Below, piece after piece: positions 1 to 7,806 of a DNA stretch of 7,806 bases. Position 1 is the first letter of the stretch, and the number at the start of each line of letters is the position of its first letter. The position numbers were made by a program, and so were the translations under genes. This stretch comes from a virus. Lineage: Duplodnaviria > Heunggongvirae > Uroviricota > Caudoviricetes. The notes under the pieces are model-generated. The model saw only the letters and a program-made list of their open reading frames with translations, was not told where the DNA came from and did not search any database. The DNA lies in the IMG/VR virus record IMGVR_UViG_3300029459_000073, positions 1 to 7,806 of that record; one strand, 5' to 3'.

Positions 1-208
1 CAGCAATATCCATGAAAAACTGCTTCGCCTGCTTTTTCGCCTCAGCTTCGTAAAACTCCAGCGTGGCACCTTCAGTACGGTCAAGACTAATCGCCACATT
101 TGGCAACAACAGTGGCGGATACCCACCAATTTCCAGTGCCACAGTAACAGCTATCTTATCCGGGTAATGATTTATCCCTTTTACAACCAGTTCATATTTT
201 TTATTCAT
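1..208 (-). CDS. DUF1327/YdfR-like lysis-cassette protein, N-terminal part only (gene runs off the left edge)
   Basis: Minus-strand ATG at 208-206 lies 4 nt after the holin stop (TAA 215-213). The frame stays open to position 1 (MNKKYELVVKGINHYPDKIAVTVALEIGGYPPLLLPNVAISLDRTEGATLEFYEAEAKKQAKQFFMDIA...). It is absent from the ORF track because the window edge truncates it. Its position directly after the holin matches ydfR (DUF1327) in the K-12 Qin prophage. The family name is recalled, not computed. Confidence 0.55.
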   Translation of the reverse strand, partial: MNKKYELVVKGINHYPDKIAVTVALEIGGYPPLLLPNVAISLDRTEGATLEFYEAEAKKQAKQFFMDIA

Positions 209-212
209 CGCT

Positions 213-428
213 TTACTCTCCCCGCGCCGCCTTACGACGGTCCTCTCTGATTTTGAAATACAGGTTAGTCAGATATGTCAGCAGCCCAAACAGCAGACTT
301 CCCAGTACGCCTATTGCCGCCCACTGAGACGGGGAAACCCTGTCCAGCAGCTGCAGGAACCAGTAGCCCGTCCCCACCGCTGACGTGGTGTATGACACAC
401 CTGTTGTGATTTTTTCCATCTGGTACAT
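213..428 (-). CDS. S: Class II holin (phage 21 S21 / Stx-phage S type pinholin) with dual start
   Basis: This 71-aa ORF matches the S21 holin pattern as I recall it ([23 protein letters not shown]...[22 protein letters not shown]). It has two hydrophobic segments and a basic C-tail. Met1 and Met4 (MYQMEK; ATGs at 428 and 419) form a dual start. GGAG at 439-436 sits 7 nt before the first ATG. Confidence 0.9.
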
Positions 429-503
429 ACCCCGTCTCCCGCAATCCGGAAGCTCACAACAACAAGTGGGGCATCAGCTCACACCGACAGCCCCTGCGCA
501 TGG

Positions 504-773
504 TTACATCATCATTTCGCCGTCAGGCTGAGGCTCACTGCCACCATCAGGCTGAGACACGACACCATCTGAAACAGCACTGTCACCCGCACCGTCTTCA
601 GGCCCGTGAGCAGCCGTTACCCCCAGCAGTTCATCAAGAATGGCATCCACTTCAGCATCAAGACGCGCCTCAAGATTCTGACGAAGTTGCTGTTTCAGTG
701 CGCTCCTGACTTCTTCAGAGCGCAGAACATCCTTCACTGCTTCAGCAGTGACCAGCGATTTTATTTCTGACAT
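504..773 (-). CDS. Small acidic phage protein of unknown function (89 aa, DUF826-like)
   Basis: I use the internal ATG at 773-771 of the 504..947 track ORF (MSEIKSLVTAEAVKDVLRSEEVR...). The upstream extension overlaps the 811..993 gene and has no RBS. A GAGAAA purine tract lies just upstream of the ATG. The N-half is helical and charged; the tail is a low-complexity acidic D/G/P/S stretch ending in MMM. The DUF826 label comes from memory of Stx-phage gene order. Confidence 0.55.
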   Translation of the reverse strand: MSEIKSLVTAEAVKDVLRSEEVRSALKQQLRQNLEARLDAEVDAILDELLGVTAAHGPEDGAGDSAVSDGVVSQPDGGSEPQPDGEMMM

Positions 774-810
774 GGTATTTTCTCGTTGAAAGGTGTTGTT
801 AAGAAAGTTG

Positions 811-993
811 CTACGGAATGAGAGGCTCTTCGGGTTTTGTTCCGGCTGACTGACTGGCACTGATTTTCTCAGCGGCCCTTTTGTCAATCTGTCTGCGCCA
901 GAAATCGCGCACTGCCCTGTACCCACCCGAAAGAAGATACAGCACACAGACCGCCGTACAGAAGTACAGCATCACCTGATGAATAAATGTCAT
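811..993 (-). CDS. Small single-pass membrane protein (60 aa), unknown function
   Basis: ATG at 993-991. The N-terminal hydrophobic helix (HQVMLYFCTAVCVLYLLSGG) is followed by a basic and then acidic tail. The gene has no good SD of its own, but its ATG overlaps the stop of an upstream micro-ORF (ATGA at 993-990). Confidence 0.55.
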   Translation of the reverse strand: MTFIHQVMLYFCTAVCVLYLLSGGYRAVRDFWRRQIDKRAAEKISASQSAGTKPEEPLIP

Positions 994-1034
994 AGTTTCT
1001 TACCGTTATGGTTGACAATGAGAACTGTTTTCAT
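990..1034 (-). CDS. 14-codon micro-ORF (MKTVLIVNHNGKKL), candidate translational-coupling ORF
   Basis: Its ATG (1034-1032) overlaps the TGA of the upstream 15-codon ORF (1033-1031). Its own TGA (992-990) overlaps the ATG of the 60-aa gene (993-991). It is too short for the ORF track; I read it by hand. Confidence 0.25.
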   Translation of the reverse strand: MKTVLIVNHNGKKL

Positions 1035-1078
1035 TTAAAAACCGATATACGAAAGCATCTTTTCTTTACATTCTCCAT
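1031..1078 (-). CDS. 15-codon micro-ORF (MENVKKRCFRISVFK) with consensus Shine-Dalgarno
   Basis: GGAGGT at 1091-1086 is followed by a 7-nt spacer and ATG at 1078-1076. The first two SD bases lie in the 3' arm of the hairpin that follows the nanS-p stop. Confidence 0.3.
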   Translation of the reverse strand: MENVKKRCFRISVFK

Positions 1079-1089
1079 TGGGATTACCT

Positions 1090-1126
1090 CCGCCAGCTTC
1101 CGTTCCTGCCGCTGGCGGCTTTTTTT
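1090..1126 (+). terminator. Intrinsic terminator oriented for the plus strand, abutting the nanS-p stop codon
   Basis: An 8-bp stem CCGCCAGC (1090-1097) / GCTGGCGG (1111-1118) encloses a 13-nt loop. It is followed by C and T7 (1120-1126). On the minus strand the same hairpin has an A-tract before it and no U-tract after it. Confidence 0.5.
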
Positions 1127-1127
1127 A

Positions 1128-3089
1128 TCATGCCGCGGCATCCGCGTTGTTCACTTCCACCTTCACACTGTCAATCAGCAGCGTATATGTCGCCGCCTTT
1201 GATATGCCTGTCAGTTGCAGTTTGTCCGCCGCCCCTGATGCCGGAGATTTCACCAGTGTGAACGGCGTCCCCCGTTTCTCATCCAGTACCGGCGTCACCT
1301 GAATGCTGTTGTTTCCGGCAAACTCAAAAGCCAGTGTGTGCCATCCGTTATCAAAGACCCCGAACGTATCCAGCTTCGCATTCGGCTTCTTGTGGTACAT
1401 CGCGTTCAGGTTCGTCGCATCCGTCTGCAGGAAGAAGGACATCAGCATGTCGTTGCCTTCCTCTGCCAGCGTCACTCCCTCCGGCAGGGACGACAACTGC
1501 CAGTAAATGCCCAGGGCAAACCGATTCGGCACCAGTGAACCCGGCAACTTAAACCGTACGCTCACACGTCCCCCCTTCTTCAGTAACTCCACTCCCTGTC
1601 CGGCTGCATCATGCTCCAGAAACCAGATGTGGTTTTCCGGTTTATTCAGTTGCAGGGCCTTACCTCCCGTAGCCCCCGCATCACTGACCACCGCTTCAGC
1701 AATGTTTTTGTTAACATTGTCTCCGCTCGCCGGTTTGTGATAATAGCGCCAGCCCTGTGATGCCAGGTCTTCGCCGGACGCCAGCAGACTCATCAGGGTT
1801 CGGTTACTGACCGGGGCTTCCGGCTCTCTCTCCGTACCTTCACCGGAAGGTCCGGTGGGCTTCACCGTATCAGGCTGTTTTCCGGTAATGAATTCAGCGG
1901 TTCTCCCGGCATGCACAAGAATCGCCGTTGCCAGACGGTCGGAAATAATCCCACGACGTGCCCATGATCCAAAATGCGTTTTACGGTCGGCCGTCGTCCA
2001 GGTTTTGGCGTCCGTTCGACCACCGGCTCCGTAATACCCAATATCCGCAACATCCGGATCTTCTGACGGCTCGTTGGTACCCACATTTCGCCCGTTTTCA
2101 TCCGTCATAAACGGCACAAAGAAGATTTTTTTTGCGGATTTCGTCTTGTATGCACCATACACCGCATCGTATTGCGAAGAATAAGTCTGCTTCCAGTAGT
2201 AGGTCGTGTCGCCACAAATCCAGGGAACCGATGACGGAGAGCCCCCGAGACACTGACCTCCGAATTCCGACAGGTCAGAACGATATTTTTCCACCATGGA
2301 ATCAAACAGCCCCGGCTGAGTGGCGTATGCACCCTGTTTCAAATCAAACTCGCCCTGCATCCAGACCACTGCAAGCAGAATATTTTTAGGGTTAGCCTTC
2401 AGTGCGGCCTGAGTACGGGTAAGCAGGTCCTTGTACAGTGGCTTATCTACACCCCAGCGTGCCGAGGTCTCGCTTGCGCCGGTGGATTCGCTGAAGGTAC
2501 CTTCATCGCCCGCCAAAAATGCAGAACCACCACGGCAGCACGGAACCAGAAGAATACCGGCATTCGCCGGAATAAACGGCAACAATTTCTTCGCGATATG
2601 TAATCCCTGCCCCACGCATCCATACTGAGCTGCGCTGGCTTTCGGGTGTGAAAACTTACTCAAATCCTGAACATCATGCAGGCAGTGGTCCGCAGGAATA
2701 ATGTCATTGTAGTTACAGGACGCACCACCCGGCGTGACAGTGCTGCGACGCGCCAGCTGTTTAATACGCGGGTCCGGACGGTCATATGTCTCCGGCAGCG
2801 GAAGCCCTTCACCATACGCCATACCGTTTGACTGCCCGGCCAGGGCAACAACAAAGTAATACTCCGGGTTGCTGGTGGTGCTGATAACTGCGCCTTCTCC
2901 ATCCGACGGCTTCACCACCACAGGTGTGGTGACATCACCTTCCGCCGCAATGGCCTGCATCAGGGTATAAGGCGTGATGGCCACCGGACTGCCAAATGGC
3001 TGCCACCCCTCCTTCAGTTTTTGTGTCAGTCGCTCCGCAAGGTCTGACGGCGACGCCGCCCTGACCACGTCATAGTGTTTAAATGCCAT
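1128..3089 (-). CDS. nanS-p: Prophage sialate O-acetylesterase NanS-p (DUF1737 N-domain + SASA/SGNH esterase + C-terminal lectin-like domain)
   Basis: A 653-aa ORF with GGGAGGA 5 nt upstream of the ATG at 3089. The N-terminus (MAFKHYDVVRAASPSDLAERLTQKLKEGWQPFG) is the DUF1737-type start of the large ORF found downstream of stx in Stx phages. The esterase block GQSN (aa 85-88, nt 2826-2837) is followed by GxxYGEG. The last ~200 aa are beta-rich and look lectin/ConA-like. The position between Q and the holin matches nanS-p loci. Confidence 0.85.
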   Translation of the reverse strand: MAFKHYDVVRAASPSDLAERLTQKLKEGWQPFGSPVAITPYTLMQAIAAEGDVTTPVVVKPSDGEGAVISTTSNPEYYFVVALAGQSNGMAYGEGLPLPETYDRPDPRIKQLARRSTVTPGGASCNYNDIIPADHCLHDVQDLSKFSHPKASAAQYGCVGQGLHIAKKLLPFIPANAGILLVPCCRGGSAFLAGDEGTFSESTGASETSARWGVDKPLYKDLLTRTQAALKANPKNILLAVVWMQGEFDLKQGAYATQPGLFDSMVEKYRSDLSEFGGQCLGGSPSSVPWICGDTTYYWKQTYSSQYDAVYGAYKTKSAKKIFFVPFMTDENGRNVGTNEPSEDPDVADIGYYGAGGRTDAKTWTTADRKTHFGSWARRGIISDRLATAILVHAGRTAEFITGKQPDTVKPTGPSGEGTEREPEAPVSNRTLMSLLASGEDLASQGWRYYHKPASGDNVNKNIAEAVVSDAGATGGKALQLNKPENHIWFLEHDAAGQGVELLKKGGRVSVRFKLPGSLVPNRFALGIYWQLSSLPEGVTLAEEGNDMLMSFFLQTDATNLNAMYHKKPNAKLDTFGVFDNGWHTLAFEFAGNNSIQVTPVLDEKRGTPFTLVKSPASGAADKLQLTGISKAATYTLLIDSVKVEVNNADAAA

Positions 3090-3242
3090 GAATCCTCCCG
3101 GCCTGGATAATATTGTGAGTAAAATGAGGAGCGGGCTGAAGTCCGGAAGTTACAGGACAATGGCAGAAGATAGACAACAGCCCGCAATACGAAAAAGGCC
3201 GCGCTATTGCGCAGAGTGATTACTGTCGGATATTATTCGCCA

Positions 3243-3311
3243 GCTGAAATATTACTTCACGTTTTGTTGTTTATTCCTTGCCGCCCGCGTCTCCCAGCGC
3301 GGGATTTTTTT
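3243..3311 (+). ncRNA. Candidate ~70-nt plus-strand small RNA (promoter-like TTGCGC-N18-TATTAT at 3207-3236 to the terminator at 3284-3311)
   Basis: A plus-strand intrinsic terminator has no plus-strand CDS to serve. A sigma70-like promoter sits ~75 nt upstream. The body is U-rich (CACGUUUUGUUGUUUAUUCCUUG) before a GC stem. This is a prediction only. Confidence 0.2.
3284..3311 (+). terminator. Intrinsic terminator, plus-strand orientation
   Basis: An all-GC 6-bp stem CCCGCG (3284-3289) / CGCGGG (3298-3303) encloses an 8-nt loop. It is followed by A and T7 (3305-3311). Confidence 0.6.
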
Positions 3312-3312
3312 G

Positions 3313-3342
3313 TCCATAAGAAAGCCCCTCCGGAGAGGGGCT
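3313..3342 (-). terminator. Intrinsic terminator, minus-strand orientation
   Basis: An 8-bp stem AGCCCCTC (3323-3330) / GAGGGGCT (3335-3342) encloses a tetraloop. On the minus strand it is followed by TTCTTATGG. It is convergent with, and 11 bp from, the plus-strand terminator. Confidence 0.5.
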
Positions 3343-3657
3343 GGAGAGTGGCGCTATGTGCCATTGCATGGTGCCGGGTGCCTCCCGGTGAGTTCAGTAT
3401 CAGCACCTGAACCCGCACAGAAAGGATAAGGGTCGGTGACAAAACACCAGTTGCTGATTGCCCCTCCGCACAGGGGGATTCACCATGCCAGTTTCTTTTA
3501 ACAAACTCCCCGCAAACCAGACAACAGTCAACCGCCTGAATTGTGAGGTATTTAAAAATTTCAACGGGTAACTGATACCCTGCTAATCGCCTGATGCTTT
3601 CTTTTTCAGCAACGGGAAAGCAACAACCACCACACCCACCAGCCGCCCATTTACCAC

Positions 3658-3685
3658 AAATAAAAAAGCCTTCACTGCGGAAGGC
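3658..3685 (-). terminator. Intrinsic terminator ending the 65-aa gene
   Basis: The minus strand reads GCCTTC-CGCAGT-GAAGGC followed by TTTTTTATTT (3667-3658). The TGA stop (3674-3672) spans the loop/stem junction. Confidence 0.65.
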
Positions 3686-3869
3686 GTCTGTAACAACCGA
3701 ACTGATAGTCTGCCAGACCCGCCATAACCAGCTGGGTCAGTATTAACTGGCAGCGTTCGCGTGAAAGGTAAGTATTCTGCGCTATCTCCCCGACTGTCGC
3801 CGGTTCGGTGACGCTTAATTCATTAAACACCACTCTGGCGGTTTCTGTCATATCCTGCTGTTTCAGCAT
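3672..3869 (-). CDS. Small (65 aa) winged-helix/HTH-like protein, unknown function
   Basis: I use the internal ATG at 3869 of the 3672..3992 track ORF, preceded by AAAAGGGAAAAAGAC. The track's start is a GTG abutting the U-tract of the upstream terminator and has no RBS. The sequence MLKQQDMTETARVVFNELSVTEPATVGEIAQNTYLSRERCQLILTQLVMAGLADY has the T-x-x-EIA...S...v...L..L...G pattern of wHTH recognition units. An alternative ATG lies at 3851. Confidence 0.5.
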   Translation of the reverse strand: MLKQQDMTETARVVFNELSVTEPATVGEIAQNTYLSRERCQLILTQLVMAGLADYQFGCYRRLPQ

Positions 3870-3992
3870 GTCTTTTTCCCTTTTCCGGTTAACGTGACAC
3901 ACCAATAACTCTTGTCGAAAAAGCCAGCAACCTGAAAGAACGGTATTAATAACCACCAGCGAATTTATTGCGCTACTGTATATCGCGGACAC

Positions 3993-4016
3993 AAAAAAAC
4001 CACCTTCCGGTGGCTT
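3993..4016 (-). terminator. tR'-like intrinsic terminator downstream of the Q-like gene
   Basis: The minus strand reads AAGCCACC-GGAA-GGTGGTTT with a run of 7 T (3999-3993). A second, weaker hairpin (GCGAAA...TTTCGC, 4044-4023) lies just before it. It sits 78-101 nt after the Q-like stop, as expected for a lambdoid late-promoter-proximal terminator. Confidence 0.7.
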
Positions 4017-4066
4017 CCTTTTGCGAAAAAAACTTGCGTTTCGCCTCGCGATACAGCTTTGCGAAG

Positions 4067-4104
4067 CTTATACGGATTGAAGCAGTTTATTGATCAGTTT
4101 GCAA
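4067..4104 (-). promoter_or_regulatory. Candidate late promoter (PR'-like) with a second -10-like hexamer in the initial transcribed region
   Basis: The minus strand reads TTGCAA (4104-4099), N17, TTCAAT (4081-4076), followed 3 nt later by TATAAG (4072-4067). Lambdoid PR' promoters carry a promoter-proximal -10-like element that causes the sigma70-dependent pause used by Q. This assignment rests on position and motif only. Confidence 0.35.
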
Positions 4105-4657
4105 CATTTTTCTCTGTAACAAAAGCCATGCGCATGGGGGCATATAACATAAATTCAGATACCCCCAACCATTGATCAATTCGGCGTCTGCACGTAACCA
4201 ACGACCAATCAGGATGATCTGCATTTAACCTTTCGGCCATTTTCAGTTTGCTCATTCCCCGTCCTTCGTACCTTTGCCGGAGAACATTGATTAGCCCGGG
4301 ATATTCCCCAAGCACCTTACTGATAACGCGATCAATAATCAACGCCTCTGTGTCTGTACAATGTGACAACCAGCTCTTCTGCTTTCCTCTTGTCATATCC
4401 CGAAAAAATGCCTCAAGTTCCGGTTTTTCCAGCCCGGATTTCTTCATTCTGCGCAAAACCTCATTAACTGCTGTTTTCGTCAGCTTTTTCGAAACCAGTA
4501 ACCGGTTAAACATATTTCCGGATTTACCCCCACCGATATACGACCACCGCCCCCACATCCGTAATTTCCCCTGGATCCAGACTGCTTCCAGCGTGTTCAG
4601 GCGTAAATGTTCGCCGCTTTTGCCTGTAATTTCCGGATATATCATATTTACGCTCAC
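4094..4657 (-). CDS. Late-gene antiterminator Q-like protein (DUF1133-type)
   Basis: The position is canonical for Q: directly after rusA and directly before a promoter-plus-terminator pair. The N-terminal L..WG.W motif (GKLRMWGRWSYIGGG) resembles the ERWGAWA motif of QuuD/82-type Q proteins. The track start is a GTG at 4657. The ATG at 4645, with GTGAG 7 nt upstream, is at least as likely (MIYPEITGK...). The family name is recalled, not computed. Confidence 0.6.
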   Translation of the reverse strand: MSVNMIYPEITGKSGEHLRLNTLEAVWIQGKLRMWGRWSYIGGGKSGNMFNRLLVSKKLTKTAVNEVLRRMKKSGLEKPELEAFFRDMTRGKQKSWLSHCTDTEALIIDRVISKVLGEYPGLINVLRQRYEGRGMSKLKMAERLNADHPDWSLVTCRRRIDQWLGVSEFMLYAPMRMAFVTEKNVAN

Positions 4658-4663
4658 TCACTC

Positions 4664-5023
4664 TCAATTTTGTAAATCTTCACACCCAGCCNNNNNNNNN
4701 NNNNNACCAGATACTGGCTGACCACGTACAATATTGATTTCATCAAACTGCTCATCGTCCATTAACAGTCCTGCATGCGTCAGCGCATCCAGCGGCGCTT
4801 TCAGGATATTGTCCAGGTCGCGACGGCGCTTATCCGGTGGCTCTGCCATAATCCTGATTACCAGCCTTCCGGACAGGCTTAATTTCAGCCGCTGCTGGCG
4901 AACAATAAGCGCCACAGCCCGGCGATAACGCTTTCCCTCCTCCGAGATAAAATATGTGCTGCCACGGCGTCGCCAGTAAGTGTTCACCGTCGGCGGGTAA
5001 GGTAAAACCAAATCTATGAGCAT
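4664..5023 (-). CDS. rusA: Holliday-junction resolvase RusA (3' end uncertain because of the N run)
   Basis: LPYPPTVNTYWRRRG...PPDKRRRDLDNILKAPLDALTHAGLLMDDEQ matches the RusA core (PDRRRRDLDN..K...DALT.AG...DD.Q). ATG at 5023 is preceded by AAGAGGTGA. The GTG at 5026 is the track start. The C-terminus after the N run is better explained by another frame ending at 4654 (see findings). Confidence 0.85.
   Translation of the reverse strand: MLIDLVLPYPPTVNTYWRRRGSTYFISEEGKRYRRAVALIVRQQRLKLSLSGRLVIRIMAEPPDKRRRDLDNILKAPLDALTHAGLLMDDEQFDEINIVRGQPVSGXXXXXAGCEDLQN
4692..4705. other. Run of 14 N (masked or unresolved bases) inside rusA
   Basis: Read directly from the sequence. Confidence 1.
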
Positions 5024-5035
5024 CACTCACCTCTT

Positions 5036-6082
5036 TTACCCAAGCACGCCAGTTGCAAAGGCGTGATCAAGAAAACGAAAAATTAAATCAACCTGAGAAC
5101 CATGCTTTTCTTCGAACGCCAGAGGATCCGCATGAAGCTCGTTGTGATGCTCCCGACACAGCGGTAGCGTGAAAATATCGTGAGATTTTGTCCCCATTCC
5201 GCCCTGACCATGACCAATCAGGTGATGGGGATCGTCGGCTGGCTTACCACAACACGCACACGGCTGTGTCTTCACCCAGCGTGTGTATTTCTCGTTAACC
5301 CAGCGGCGACGTTTAGGTCGTTTCATGAAAGATTCCGGAGACTCAGGATCAACGGCAATGCTGACCACCGTCTTTTCCTGTGGTGGGTTCTGTTGCTGGT
5401 GGGCGTGAGNNNNNNNNNNNTTTTTTGTGCGCTGTTTCAGTATGCTGGTGGCGGTCTGCTCTCCCGGTACGATGTCGCTTTCACGGTACATTGAGCGGAT
5501 TTTTTCCGCACGCAACCCCAGCGAACGACGTAATACCGCTTCCGGTAGCGCGTCCGCCACCTGATTGTGGACCGCCCACCAGGATAATTCAGCCAGCGAT
5601 AATTCCCGCTCCTGTGTGCCATTCATTGCGTGACGAATGACGTCAATCATCCATGCTGACAAGTTTTGGTGAGCAAGTTGCTCAAGTGATTCGGAGGTCT
5701 GGTCACGCAACTGGTTGTCGCAGTGCCAGCACAACACCATTGCGCCGGTACCATAACGGTGAATGACGGTTTCGCTGTGATGATAATCGCCGTGTGGCCA
5801 CTGGCAGGATTTAATATGGCGCAACAGCCAGTCAGACAATGCACCAGCACCACCAGCAGCACGAATCACCCGTGCGTTACTGAAAAACGGCAGCAATGTT
5901 TTGTCTTCCACCAGCGGCTGGCGAACGGCAGGAACGACCCCGGACGGCAGATTACGCATGCTTTTCGGTTCCGGCTCCACCAGTACCCGGGTATTGTGGA
6001 ATACCGGCATGGATTCACGGCCCGGCTTAACGATCACCAGCCCGAGTTCCGGTACCAGAACAGGTCGAAGTAATACTCGCAC
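5036..6082 (-). CDS. DUF968 / YdfU-like protein with two Cys/His (HNH-like) motifs
   Basis: A 348-aa ORF with a GTG start at 6082, 1 nt after the upstream TAA. The C-terminal CACCGKPADDPHHLIGHGQGGMGTKSHDIFTLPLCREHHNELH is an HNH-like metal-binding motif. A degenerate copy lies at aa 93-125. Size and position (before Q, after a hok locus) match ydfU of the K-12 Qin prophage. The frame is continuous across the 11-N run. Confidence 0.8.
   Translation of the reverse strand: MRVLLRPVLVPELGLVIVKPGRESMPVFHNTRVLVEPEPKSMRNLPSGVVPAVRQPLVEDKTLLPFFSNARVIRAAGGAGALSDWLLRHIKSCQWPHGDYHHSETVIHRYGTGAMVLCWHCDNQLRDQTSESLEQLAHQNLSAWMIDVIRHAMNGTQERELSLAELSWWAVHNQVADALPEAVLRRSLGLRAEKIRSMYRESDIVPGEQTATSILKQRTKXXXXXHAHQQQNPPQEKTVVSIAVDPESPESFMKRPKRRRWVNEKYTRWVKTQPCACCGKPADDPHHLIGHGQGGMGTKSHDIFTLPLCREHHNELHADPLAFEEKHGSQVDLIFRFLDHAFATGVLG
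5410..5420. other. Run of 11 N (masked or unresolved bases) inside the DUF968 gene
   Basis: Read directly from the sequence. It falls in the linker between the two Cys/His motifs and preserves the reading frame. Confidence 1.
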
Positions 6083-6083
6083 G

Positions 6084-6362
6084 TTACCTCCAGATGCGTT
6101 GCTGGAATGTGCGGGACGGACGCGGTGAGCGTTCGGAGTAAGGAAGCCTGACGGAGATTATCCAGTGACGATAATCGAGGCTGAGGGCTTTCTTAATCTC
6201 GTATCCGTGTCTGCGGTAGCACTGAATTAGCCACTCGGCCTGTTCTTCAGTGCATGGGGGATGCTGGAACCAGTCAGATTTGAAAGTGCGGGAACGCCGC
6301 CCGTGCCTGCTGGCAAAGACGGCAGAATCATCAGAATTGTGTAATTTGGTATCGTGCGCCAT
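6084..6362 (-). CDS. Hypothetical 92-aa protein (occupies the position of rem in Qin-type prophages)
   Basis: I use the internal ATG at 6362 of the 6084..6491 track ORF (MAHDTKLHNSDDSAVF...). The upstream 43 codons span the hok terminator hairpin, so they are unlikely to be coding. The TAA (6086-6084) lies 1 nt before the DUF968 GTG, suggesting coupling. I recognise no domain. Confidence 0.5.
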   Translation of the reverse strand: MAHDTKLHNSDDSAVFASRHGRRSRTFKSDWFQHPPCTEEQAEWLIQCYRRHGYEIKKALSLDYRHWIISVRLPYSERSPRPSRTFQQRIWR

Positions 6363-6434
6363 CGGTTGTCTCTGCTGGCGCAGCAGGTGCCAGTTGTTCA
6401 GGCTGGCGTGCGAATTGTAAACCAGAATGCCAGG

Positions 6435-6461
6435 AAAAAACAAAACCCGCCGAAGCGGGTT
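6435..6461 (-). terminator. Intrinsic terminator of the hok transcript
   Basis: The minus strand reads AACCCGC-TTCG-GCGGGTT followed by TTGTTTTTT (6443-6435). Confidence 0.8.
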
Positions 6462-6467
6462 ACGTGC

Positions 6468-6480
6468 GGGTGCGTTGAGG
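6468..6480 (-). promoter_or_regulatory. fbi-like 3' fold-back element of hok mRNA
   Basis: Minus-strand CCTCAACGCACCC is complementary, with one bulged C, to the predicted mRNA 5' end GGGTGCTTGAGG (6855-6844). Confidence 0.55.
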
Positions 6481-6529
6481 ATGCCTGACACATCAGAGGT
6501 GGCGAGGGATTTCTCCCTCGCCGGGTCTC

Positions 6530-6685
6530 TTACTCCTCAGGTTCGTAAACTGTGAAGACAGCGACCTCCGTCTGGCCGGTTCGGATTCGTACCTCGCAGA
6601 GGTCTTTCCTCGTTACCAGTGCCGTCACTATGACGGTTAAACAGATGACGATCAGGGCGATTAACATCGCCTTTTGCTGCTTCAT
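6530..6685 (-). CDS. hokD: Hok/Gef-family type I membrane toxin (51 aa)
   Basis: MKQQKAMLIALIVICLTVIVTALVTRKDLCEVRIRTGQTEVAVFTVYEPEE is, as I recall it, almost identical to HokD/RelF of the Qin prophage and clearly belongs to the Hok family. ATG at 6685 is preceded by AAGGAG (6700-6695). Confidence 0.9.
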   Translation of the reverse strand: MKQQKAMLIALIVICLTVIVTALVTRKDLCEVRIRTGQTEVAVFTVYEPEE

Positions 6686-6742
6686 AGCCTGCTTCTCCTT
6701 GCCTTTCGGCACGTAAGAGGCTAACCTACATGTGTCTAGCAT
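6530..6742 (-). CDS. mok: Mok-like overlapping reading frame (in-frame N-terminal extension of hok, 70 aa)
   Basis: ATG at 6742 with GAGG (6754-6751) 8 nt upstream. It shares the stop with hok, as for mokC/hokC in K-12. Confidence 0.55.
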   Translation of the reverse strand: MLDTCRLASYVPKGKEKQAMKQQKAMLIALIVICLTVIVTALVTRKDLCEVRIRTGQTEVAVFTVYEPEE

Positions 6743-6806
6743 GAAATTGGCCTCAGATTAATGTTAAGCGTCTTGCAGGACGCGTAATGTTAACTGGGGC
6801 TTTTCT
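6734..6806 (+). ncRNA. sok: Sok-like antisense RNA (approximate ends)
   Basis: The plus strand has TTGCCT (6699-6704), N17, TAACCT (6722-6727). The predicted 5' tail (about 6734-6757) is antisense to the mok ATG and SD. A 15-bp hairpin with one mismatch follows (6758-6793), then CTGGGGCTTTTCTCT. The ends are not determined. Confidence 0.4.
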
Positions 6807-6843
6807 CTATCTGCCTTTTGGTATTCATGCCTGAGACAGATAG

Positions 6844-6855
6844 CCTCAAGCACCC
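6844..6855 (-). promoter_or_regulatory. tac-like 5' element of hok mRNA
   Basis: The minus strand reads GGGTGCTTGAGG, starting 7 nt after the -10 hexamer. It resembles the GGCGCUUGAGGCU 5' end of R1 hok mRNA as I recall it, and it pairs with 6480-6468. Confidence 0.55.
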
Positions 6856-6861
6856 GCAGCA

Positions 6862-6889
6862 ATTCTACTTAACTATCCTTTCCCCGCAA
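6862..6889 (-). promoter_or_regulatory. hok/mok mRNA promoter
   Basis: The minus strand reads TTGCGG (6889-6884), N16, TAGAAT (6867-6862). The predicted transcript from about 6855 to 6436 is about 420 nt, the usual size class for hok-family mRNAs. Confidence 0.55.
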
Positions 6890-6896
6890 ATCGTTT

Positions 6897-6980
6897 TTAT
6901 CCCCAGCGACAAATCGAATACACCACCAGCGCCACCGCCATTGCGATCCCTACCGTTGTGAATGCCTCAGGCCAGGTCAT
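6897..6980 (-). CDS. 27-aa hydrophobic micropeptide ([27 protein letters not shown])
   Basis: Read by hand, as it is too short for the track. Its ATG (6980-6978) overlaps the TGA (6979-6977) of the 114-aa gene. It has one predicted TM helix and a TAA at 6899-6897. Confidence 0.35.
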
Positions 6981-7321
6981 CGTAAAACATCCTCTGCGCT
7001 TATCAGTCCGTTTCGCTTCAGGTAGTCCATCGCCTTACCCGGCAATTTACAGTCCGGCTTCGTTTTCCTCAGTTGCCAGGTTAACTGCTTTACCAGCATG
7101 GTTAACTCGTCGACCAGACGCTGATGTCCCACTGGTTTGTATTCATGCAATTTACCGGCTGGCTCTGCTGCCAGCGATGCCAGTGCGATTTCCAGAACAG
7201 CAATATCTATCTTATATGTGCGGATGATGTCATGGTCGATTGTGCCCGGTATGCACAGTCTCTGTGCTTCAATAGTCTCCTCTGCGTGAGCTATTAACTG
7301 CTCTCTGGTAAAAGTGGTCAT
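6977..7321 (-). CDS. Hypothetical 114-aa protein, predicted helical
   Basis: Its ATG (7321-7319) overlaps the TGA (7320-7318) of the upstream nuclease gene. There is no competing ORF, since the 6958..7227 plus-strand ORF is antisense and low-complexity. I recognise no domain with confidence. Confidence 0.65.
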
Positions 7322-7806
7322 GCCGCGCTTCCTTCTTGCTTATTAACGATTACACCGTCATATATTTCATTAAGGTGTCCCCTCAACTCCATGCGCCTTA
7401 ATGCAGACAACATGTAATCGCATTCAACCTGCTTATTTCCAGTAAATGGCTTATCGTCAGGATCACCCCAACAGCAATTACCCTTGGGCCACCCATGTAC
7501 TTTCCGTACTCTTCCGTTAACAACGTGAAGTAATCCCCAGCCAGGTGGTAAATCCTCAATTGAAATAATTCCCGGCTCACTAATAAAGAATCTCCAGTCG
7601 CCCATGCCAAGAGAGGGATTTTTACGGAAACGCTTTTTTCTATCTGCCAACAAGTCAGCACGAGAACACTTCGCCTCTATCAGGCATGATGCTGAATTTC
7701 TGAATCCCATAGCATCTGGCTGTTCTCCGGTACTGGTTACAGCAACAAAGCGGTCATGAAAGCAAACCTTGAACCCGTTGCGCTTAAGGAACCTGTACGC
7801 AATCTG
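7318..7806 (-). CDS. MmcB-like PD-(D/E)xK nuclease-fold protein (N-terminus beyond the right edge)
   Basis: The frame of the 7318..7710 track ORF stays open upstream to 7806 ([60 protein letters not shown]...). The PD ... IEAK spacing fits a D...ExK nuclease core. The [11 protein letters not shown] string after it is the signature I associate with the MmcB-like family (PF06319). This is recalled, not computed. Confidence 0.65.

Follow-up and report, generated by a model that had tools for sequence, protein, structure and literature searches.

The DNA considered here, called the window in what follows, is a stretch of 7,806 nucleotides from a virus of the Caudoviricetes (positions 1 to 7,806 of IMG/VR record IMGVR_UViG_3300029459_000073), and all positions refer to it. 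Upstream of a nanS-p-type gene for a sialate O-acetylesterase it carries two hairpins that face each other, which a preliminary description, drawn from the letters alone, had taken for the terminators of converging transcription units, one of them closing a short U-rich plus-strand RNA. We find it highly probable that the segment 3130-3517 consists of two convergent prophage genes for Hfq-binding small RNAs (sRNAs), the plus-strand RNA being that catalogued as EcOnc08/21/42 and acting in trans via the sequence CCUUGCC. This feature is already known: the plus-strand RNA has been published, though it was left unnamed, it is absent from Rfam and it is unannotated in the genome records examined. 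Reading of the raw sequence alone recovered, in this case, a real and experimentally supported pair of sRNAs.

Two terminators face to face

On the plus strand, the hairpin CCCGCGT-CTCCCA-GCGCGGG (3284-3303) is followed by a single A, then by seven T residues at 3305-3311. On the minus strand, the hairpin AGCCCCTC-TCCG-GAGGGGCT runs from 3342 to 3323 and continues into the tail TTCTTAT, with 11 bp (3312-3322) lying between the two structures, and every coordinate first proposed for these facing terminators, at 3284-3311 and 3342-3323, agrees with the sequence. Both come at the top of the list returned by a terminator scan, with stems of 8 pairs (6 GC) and 7 pairs (6 GC), the same scan yielding 17 hits in the window against 8.0 +/- 2.8 in shuffled sequences. 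Folding gives -13.4 kcal/mol for the plus hairpin (z -2.2; 6 of 200 shuffles do equally well) and -18.0 kcal/mol for the minus hairpin (z -3.5, or -3.45 before rounding; 0 of 200 shuffles). Each displays what is expected of a rho-independent terminator, a GC-rich stem-loop with an immediate U-run on the transcribed strand, the minus tail CUUUCUUAU being weaker than the U7 of its counterpart. Because the U-run of the 3284-3303 hairpin is present on the plus side only, that hairpin is not a bidirectional terminator. Furthermore, the coverage-based 3' end of a related RNA from enteropathogenic Escherichia coli (EPEC) maps to 3311, the last T of the run.

A second terminator-like hairpin of the minus strand, at 3192-3214, is kept in the window and in all five loci of the Sakai genome that were aligned with it, and its U-G pair is possible in the minus-strand RNA only. 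It lies directly upstream of the nanS-p leader, its 5' arm being the complement of the -35 element of a plus-strand promoter discussed below, so that one stretch of DNA serves both strands.

The owner of the minus-strand terminator is readily found. The Rfam scan of the window matched the STnc100 model (RF02076) over its full length, 1-206, at 143.2 bits (E 1.5e-32) where the gathering score is 47, and the hairpin at 3342-3323 is the terminal stem of this model (positions 173-197). By this sequence match the minus-strand terminator closes an RNA of the STnc100 family; the terminator noticed at the outset was genuine, and the RNA to which it belongs had gone unrecognised. Copies of STnc100 are transcribed in O157:H7 EDL933, where one was confirmed by Northern blot (PMC5331693), and a 2026 preprint links the family to the EPEC sRNAs PasD1 and PasD2.

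The segment 3130-3517 would then be where two convergent sRNA genes meet, between Q and nanS-p, within the late region of a lambdoid prophage. The abutting terminators would keep each polymerase out of the opposite gene. In a lysogen, the STnc100 terminator and that at 3214-3192 would together bar unmodified polymerases from nanS-p and the lysis genes, a presumed insulating role. The existence of two converging units, with no coding sequence on the plus strand, is supported.

A plus-strand RNA already in the catalogues

The Northern probe published for EcOnc08/21/42, AATAATATCCGACAGTAATCACTCTGCGCAATAGC, has a reverse complement that is found at 3203-3237 with 35 exact matches out of 35, and it is therefore the plus-strand RNA that was detected. 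The names go back to Table S2 of Tree et al. (2014), listing peaks obtained by Hfq crosslinking and analysis of cDNA (CRAC): EcOnc08 and EcOnc21 in prophage Sp4 and EcOnc42 in Sp15, with one shared Northern band of approximately 271 nt. We mapped the 2014 peak coordinates to the current Sakai record and from there to the window, the offset being calibrated from other probes. The EcOnc21/42 peak then falls at about 3139-3231 and the EcOnc08 peak at about 3237-3309, with EcOnc05 landing on the STnc100 copy. Between the published coordinates (NC_002695.1) and the current Sakai sequence (NC_002695.2) the offset is 0 at 1.18 Mb and about +128 bp from 1.27 Mb onward, a shift that matters for anyone mapping the EcOnc tables. 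'Convergent sRNAs' were described at the moron site downstream of PR' in Sp3, 4, 5, 9, 10, 11, 15 and 17 (Tree et al., 2014), and stx1AB is said to be 'bookended' by StxS and EcOnc42 (Sy et al., 2020).

EPEC provides the second line of evidence. The sRNA recorded there as 'E2348C_1409.E2348C_1408.IGR' (NC_011601, 1444797-1444978, minus strand, 182 nt; Pearl Mizrahi et al., 2021, PMC8550237, Table S6), homologous to EcOnc08/21/42 according to its authors, shares 178 of 182 positions with 3130-3311. An Hfq-binding sRNA of the plus strand that ends at the plus terminator, as had been surmised, is thus documented by Northern blotting, CRAC and RNA interaction by ligation and sequencing (RIL-seq) on copies 96-98% identical to this one, in Sakai Sp4 and Sp15 and in EPEC PP6. 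The preliminary description was also right in kind when it pointed to the class of sRNAs of Tree et al. (2014), a paper that reports this very convergent layout, and the comparison with the published O157 sRNA catalogues that it recommended leads to EcOnc08/21/42. Over 3180-3330, low-stringency Rfam matches to anti-hemB (15.9 bits), OmrA-B (15.1), ftsZ-DE (13.9) and suhB (13.3) remain at chance level, far under the gathering scores, and were discarded.

Conservation was followed in 147 copies, comprising 37 distinct variants, collected from viral contigs with nanS-p and the sRNA body as anchors. The -35 element of the internal promoter (Table 1) is invariant, its -10 element is altered in one variant of the 37, and the spacer varies in its 3' half, its length staying fixed at 18. 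Loss of the hexamers with preservation of the hairpins would have spoken for mere insulation in both directions; the hexamers proved to be conserved. The helix of the plus terminator is paired in 99% of cells over 15 distinct variants, with one GC-to-AU double change and several UG-to-CG or UG-to-UA changes. Of 5,426 complete E. coli genomes, 992 contain the 110-nt module 3213-3322, at a total of 1,442 sites; 55 phage records, with Stx2a phages numerous among them, have it too. We are therefore dealing with a conserved element and not with a chance pair of hairpins. The plus-strand RNA is carried by about 18% of the complete E. coli genomes, among them those of enterohaemorrhagic E. coli (EHEC), EPEC, O104:H4 and UTI89. 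No annotated feature underlies the module among the 30 matches listed, nor in the records of Sakai and EPEC. This recurring annotation gap would be closed by a covariance model and a name, as the RNA has no Rfam family despite support from Northern blots, CRAC and RIL-seq.

Table 1. Coordinates of the convergent sRNA genes, their signals and their neighbours in the window
Feature	Position	Strand	Basis
EcOnc08/21/42-type sRNA, long form	3130-3311	+	EPEC RNA alignment, Northern probe, CRAC peaks
Candidate short form, about 69 nt	3243-3311	+	EcOnc08 CRAC peak; analogy with AsxR
Internal sigma-70-like promoter TTGCGC-N18-TATTAT	3207-3236	+	Column alignment with AsxR promoter
Candidate long-form promoter: ATGCCA-N17-GATAAT (3083-3111) or -10 TAAAAT (3120-3125)	3083-3125	+	Scan
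G/U-rich stretch before the seed	3262-3275	+	
Proposed seed CCUUGCC, just 5' of the terminator	3276-3282	+	Complementary to RIL-seq target motif
Intrinsic terminator of the plus-strand sRNA	3284-3311	+	7-pair stem, 6-nt loop, U7 run; scan, folding
Intrinsic terminator of the STnc100-family RNA	3323-3342	-	8 bp, 4-nt loop, tail CUUUCUUAU; scan, folding
Second terminator-like hairpin CUGCGC-AAUA-GCGCGG, then CCUUUUUCG	3192-3214	-	Scan; -9.1 kcal/mol, z -1.9
STnc100-family sRNA, counterpart of EcOnc05 in Sakai Sp4	3517-3312	-	Rfam RF02076
21-codon open reading frame MDKKIPRWETRAARNKQQNVK	3317-3252	-	Sequence as given in the preliminary description
nanS-p-type sialate O-acetylesterase gene, conserved downstream neighbour	1128-3089	-	Pfam DUF1737, SASA, DUF6645
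106-codon open reading frame between Q and the STnc100 copy	3672-3992	-	No significant Pfam match
Terminator of the 106-codon frame, overlapping its stop codon	3685-3668	-	Terminator scan
Q-type antiterminator gene	4094-4657		

Starts, targets and competing readings

The extent of the plus-strand RNA depends on where its transcription begins. As the probe at 3203-3237 detects about 271 nt and EPEC coverage amounts to 182 nt, there exists a longer RNA that starts at least 110 nt upstream. This long form would start near 3118-3132, as shown in homologues. The promoter scan found ATGCCA-N17-GATAAT (weight-matrix score 8.3) at its upstream side, and the 5' end estimated in EPEC, 3130, comes 4 nt after the hexamer TAAAAT. 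Conservation of 3083-3125 cannot be interpreted, for the ribosome-binding site and start codon of nanS-p overlap this stretch.

A second form of about 69 nt would start near 3243 from the internal promoter that had been proposed initially and is indeed present, with TTGCGC at 3207-3212, a spacer of 18 nt and TATTAT at 3231-3236. The promoter scan missed it because its -35 hexamer matches the consensus at only 3 of 6 bases; in a weight-matrix scan it is the best plus-strand site within 2940-3330 and the 11th of 15,532 positions in the window, a rank not compelling by itself. The argument comes rather from AsxR, an sRNA of prophage Sp5 with a primary 5' end that was mapped by RNA ligase-mediated rapid amplification of cDNA ends (RLM-RACE; Tree et al., 2014). 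That end lies 5 nt after the aligned -10 hexamer, which makes TTGCGC-N18-TATTAT the positional counterpart of a mapped promoter. In the same columns, the -10 reads TATTAT in the window and TAAAAT in AsxR, AgvB1 and EcOnc03. By this analogy, it is plausible that the internal promoter gives rise to an RNA of about 69 nt.

In both forms the CCUUGCC seed beside the terminator would be accompanied by a single-stranded, G/U-rich stretch. Through its U-tail and U-rich body the RNA would bind Hfq, and it would pair in trans with the 5' untranslated regions (UTRs) of cfa and dppA and with the pcm, tir, espC and perA mRNAs. Behind this proposal stands a motif found in the targets, GGCA[A/G]GG (MEME E 0.0096; Pearl Mizrahi et al., 2021, PMC8550237, Fig. 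S5, Table S7), which is complementary to CCUUGCC at 3276-3282. The seed is kept as CCTTGC in the W-type copies retrieved via the nanS-p anchor, an anchor without seed bias. In the RIL-seq matches listed for the EPEC RNA, chimeras are reported with the cfa 5'UTR (767), the dppA 5'UTR (197), pcm (118 + 17), perA (30), tir (29), espC (26), E2348C_3965 (16) and emrA (15), and there the RNA is always RNA2, as is the case for sRNAs (Pearl Mizrahi et al., 2021, PMC8550237). All partners among the matches listed in Table S3 are mRNAs. Hfq binding, expression and chimeras have been shown, then, in homologues 96-98% identical to this copy, and a regulatory outcome may follow from them. Partners such as cfa, dppA, tir, espC and perA connect carriage of the prophage with the modification of membrane lipids, the uptake of peptides and type III secretion.

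Several observations weigh against a trans-acting EcOnc08/21/42 RNA as we present it. All data on expression, Hfq and interactions come from the 96-98% identical copies, in other hosts. The published sizes, about 271 nt in the EHEC Northern blot and 182 nt from EPEC RNA-seq coverage (3130-3311), disagree with one another and neither equals 69 nt; furthermore, the weight-matrix scan found no good site near 3040 for a promoter that would yield 271 nt. A 2021 review table gives the target of EcOnc42 as unknown, and we found no published regulatory effect on any target. When the body 3243-3283 was set against the RIL-seq target segments of cfa, dppA and pcm with RNAduplex, which ignores accessibility, 33, 58 and 192 of 300 dinucleotide shuffles, respectively, paired equally well. 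Finally, the case for covariation in the plus terminator is a single double change in sequences that are close relatives: 39 of 500 shuffles show as many pairs altered on both sides, and the observed covariation score is reached by 35 of 500.

Which form matters most is a further question. In the scheme of the preliminary description, activity resides mainly in a short sRNA that resembles AsxR (3243-3311, about 69 nt) and is driven by the internal promoter, and the longer RNA, with which this scheme is compatible, is a minor read-in product; we give it somewhat less than an even chance. The -35, 18-nt spacer and -10 align exactly with the AsxR promoter, for which RLM-RACE, run both with TAP (tobacco acid pyrophosphatase) and without it, located the primary 5' end, the hexamers are essentially invariant over the 37 variants around a variable spacer, and EcOnc08 forms a separate CRAC peak (3237-3309) in five of five datasets, compared to three of five for the upstream peak. 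Neither a band nor a 5' end of about 69 nt has been reported, a silence that carries no information: the sole Northern probe (3203-3237) overlaps the proposed internal promoter and lies upstream of the proposed short-form start, so that published blots say nothing on this form. The -35 doubles as an arm of the conserved minus terminator at 3192-3214, a possible cause of its invariance. Two contigs in which other DNA has taken the place of the upstream region retain the cassette from 3193 on, but these look like the result of a deletion in a decayed prophage, Rz being adjacent. In both contigs (L148 and L156) homology to the window sets in abruptly at 3193 and extends as far as 3395, with the Rz lysis gene in place of nanS-p; as proof of an autonomous cassette they were given little weight.

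The position of the RNA opposite the late genes suggests another mode of action, in which it would work mainly in cis: fully complementary to the Q-antiterminated late leader from the STnc100 terminator to nanS-p, it could trigger cleavage or transcription interference affecting nanS-p and the lysis genes. The layout by itself implies convergence with the late operon. Of the 222 nt of leader that precede the nanS-p start (3089), the long form 3130-3311 spans the greater part, and the element is nearly always linked to nanS-p. We nevertheless hold a predominantly cis action to be unlikely, as the RIL-seq ligations are mostly with unlinked mRNAs, with the RNA as RNA2, which is typical of trans-acting sRNAs, and its siblings AsxR and AgvB act in trans. 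Moreover, according to the EPEC estimate the RNA leaves 41 nt between itself and the nanS-p start codon, with the ribosome-binding site unmasked. A cis-antisense effect on the late leader in addition to trans action is possible. That the hairpins merely insulate the late promoter region and nanS-p from each other in both directions, the plus-strand RNA being functionless noise, is very improbable. A heavily terminated late leader would fit with the two other minus terminators nearby, at 3214-3192 and 3685-3668; against it stand the U-run confined to the plus side of the 3284-3303 hairpin, an RNA abundant enough to be seen by Northern, CRAC and RIL-seq in two pathotypes, the conservation of promoter hexamers and seed, and the presence in other prophages of proven functional sRNAs in the same slot. 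The chances are slimmer still that the minus-strand 21-codon open reading frame (ORF), correctly described in both sequence and coordinates by the preliminary description, is translated into a basic micro-protein or leader peptide, for which the STnc100 terminator would provide the Shine-Dalgarno (SD) sequence in its 3' arm. Its frame is open for 21 codons in the window and its ATG follows GGAGGGG by 7 nt, but only about 82 of the 147 copies keep an in-frame 21-codon version: 28 have no ATG at this place, 18 are frameshifted by changes in the length of an A-run, giving MDKKARAGRRGRQGINNKT and one other peptide, and 19 meet a premature stop. With 65 copies out of 147 (44%) disrupted in one of these ways, it was rejected as a conserved coding gene; all 147 copies keep the plus terminator and all but one the promoter hexamers. 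Amino-acid changes follow those of the hairpin and loop, the SD is buried in the -18 kcal/mol terminator stem, and transcripts made in the absence of antitermination stop before the ATG.

Other features of the window and related loci

The remainder of the window contains further candidates for prophage RNAs. At the other end of nanS-p, a strong plus-strand promoter with TTGACA at 1012 obtains the second best weight-matrix score of the window (10.5). Downstream of it, a plus terminator with its stem at 1106-1118, a C and a T7 run that reaches 1126 faces nanS-p and leaves a single base to the stop codon of this gene (1128-1130). Together (1012-1126, plus strand) they predict that an RNA of about 80 nt, antisense in orientation, is made at the place occupied in EPEC by PasA (85 nt) or PasC (78 nt); similarity to these two is weak apart from the terminator arms GCCAGC...GCTGGC. 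The Northern probes directed against PasA, PasB, PasC and PasD find no match in the window when up to 4 mismatches are allowed. On the minus strand, the sok antitoxin RNA (RF01794) is matched over its full length at 6680-6855 (120.7 bits, gathering score 59), overlapping the start of a 70-codon ORF (6530-6742, minus strand) in what looks like a hok/sok-type toxin-antitoxin module. An isrK match at 6440-6521 (minus strand) stays below threshold, with 27.8 bits (E 0.006) where the gathering score is 50, and ends in a good terminator at 6461-6444; it may be a prophage sRNA, or else a terminated leader upstream of a 135-codon ORF (6084-6491). No tRNA was found in the window. Two runs of N, at 4692-4705 (14 bases, in the RusA ORF) and 5410-5420 (11 bases, in the DUF968 ORF), are masked or unresolved in the source record.

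AsxR and AgvB had been put forward as possible identities for the plus-strand RNA. Their Rfam models (RF02703 and RF02702) give no match at E<=1 over the window, nor at E<=10 over the 151 nt of 3180-3330. By contrast, they work in positive controls, where scores range from 56.6 to 96.5 bits (AsxR in Sp5, 88.1 bits; AgvB in Sp10, 96.5 bits; Sp9, 56.6 bits), and both identities are ruled out. The conserved 3' region of some 42 nt in AsxR and AgvB (GTATCTCATGC..TTGCCCGAACCCAYTCGGGC) is likewise absent, alignment leaving scattered identities (TAT..C.TGC) and another hairpin sequence. In the Rfam scan of Sakai Sp5, Sp10 and Sp9, STnc100 adjoins and converges on AsxR, AgvB or EcOnc03; in Sp4, Sp15 and EPEC PP6 it is reported alone, beside the EcOnc08-type RNA. 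This, combined with the failure of the models here, indicates a different RNA in the same slot, for which Rfam has no family. Aligned from the nanS-p start, the window and the five Sakai loci have a common scaffold, in which a conserved leader, the minus hairpin with its TTGCGC arm, the 18-nt spacer and the -10 are followed by a swapped RNA body, a GC hairpin with its T-run and the STnc100 terminator.

The slot would thus be modular, the same -35 and terminator scaffold carrying AsxR, AgvB or EcOnc03 in other prophages. Carried further, this idea would make it an 'sRNA slot' with recombining bodies, where the present cassette also produces a 69-nt AsxR-like RNA, its G/U-rich stretch and CCUUGCC contacting the dppA and cfa leaders, and unseen to date because the sole probe lies upstream of its start. 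We regard this extended version as possible but rather doubtful. If it were true, sibling cassettes would pull dppA in opposite directions, AgvB relieving repression by GcvB and the plus-strand RNA binding the dppA leader directly.

Comparison with known systems places the window closest to EcOnc08/EcOnc21 (Sakai Sp4), EcOnc42 (Sp15) and the RNA of EPEC PP6, which are the same gene, with the same terminator and CCUUGCC seed. The Sakai copies are 97-98% identical to the window over 3040-3350, and the synteny is common to all, with a converging STnc100, then nanS-p, and the RNA opposite the late-gene strand. Differences are limited to a few points, such as A for T in the terminator loop and A for C before the U-run. 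The STnc100 copy of Sp15 has stx1AB upstream of it, whereas in the window there is no toxin gene or tRNA between Q and the sRNA pair. The minus-strand partner, for its part, belongs with STnc100 (to which EcOnc05 and, likely, EcOnc13 and EcOnc27 correspond): it likewise matches the full model including its terminator, at the usual late-region site, with 143 bits as compared with 208 bits for the Sp5 copy. PasD1 and PasD2 are relatives of STnc100, and since the PasD Northern probe has no match here within 4 mismatches the minus-strand RNA is not a PasD variant. StxS and the lambda 6S RNA are also short Hfq-binding RNAs of lysogens that stem from the late-region leader. StxS, however, is the PR'-tR' transcript found directly downstream of Q, and here the 106-codon ORF and its terminator separate Q from STnc100.

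Finally, the prophage anti-sRNAs AsxR, AgvB and EcOnc03 share with the window the slot beside STnc100 upstream of nanS-p, a TTGCGC -35, the 18-nt spacer and a TAnnAT -10, and with the plus-strand RNA a short U-rich body, a GC hairpin, a U-run and Hfq binding, known for the latter from its homologues. The sequences of body and terminator in these anti-sRNAs are unrelated to those of the plus-strand RNA. In length, they (51-60 nt) differ from the predicted short form (69 nt), and EcOnc08/21/42 exist in a longer form of 182-271 nt. As for their partners, AsxR and AgvB interact with sRNAs such as FnrS and GcvB, in contrast to EcOnc08/21/42, for which the partners reported in the matches listed are mRNAs (cfa, dppA and others).

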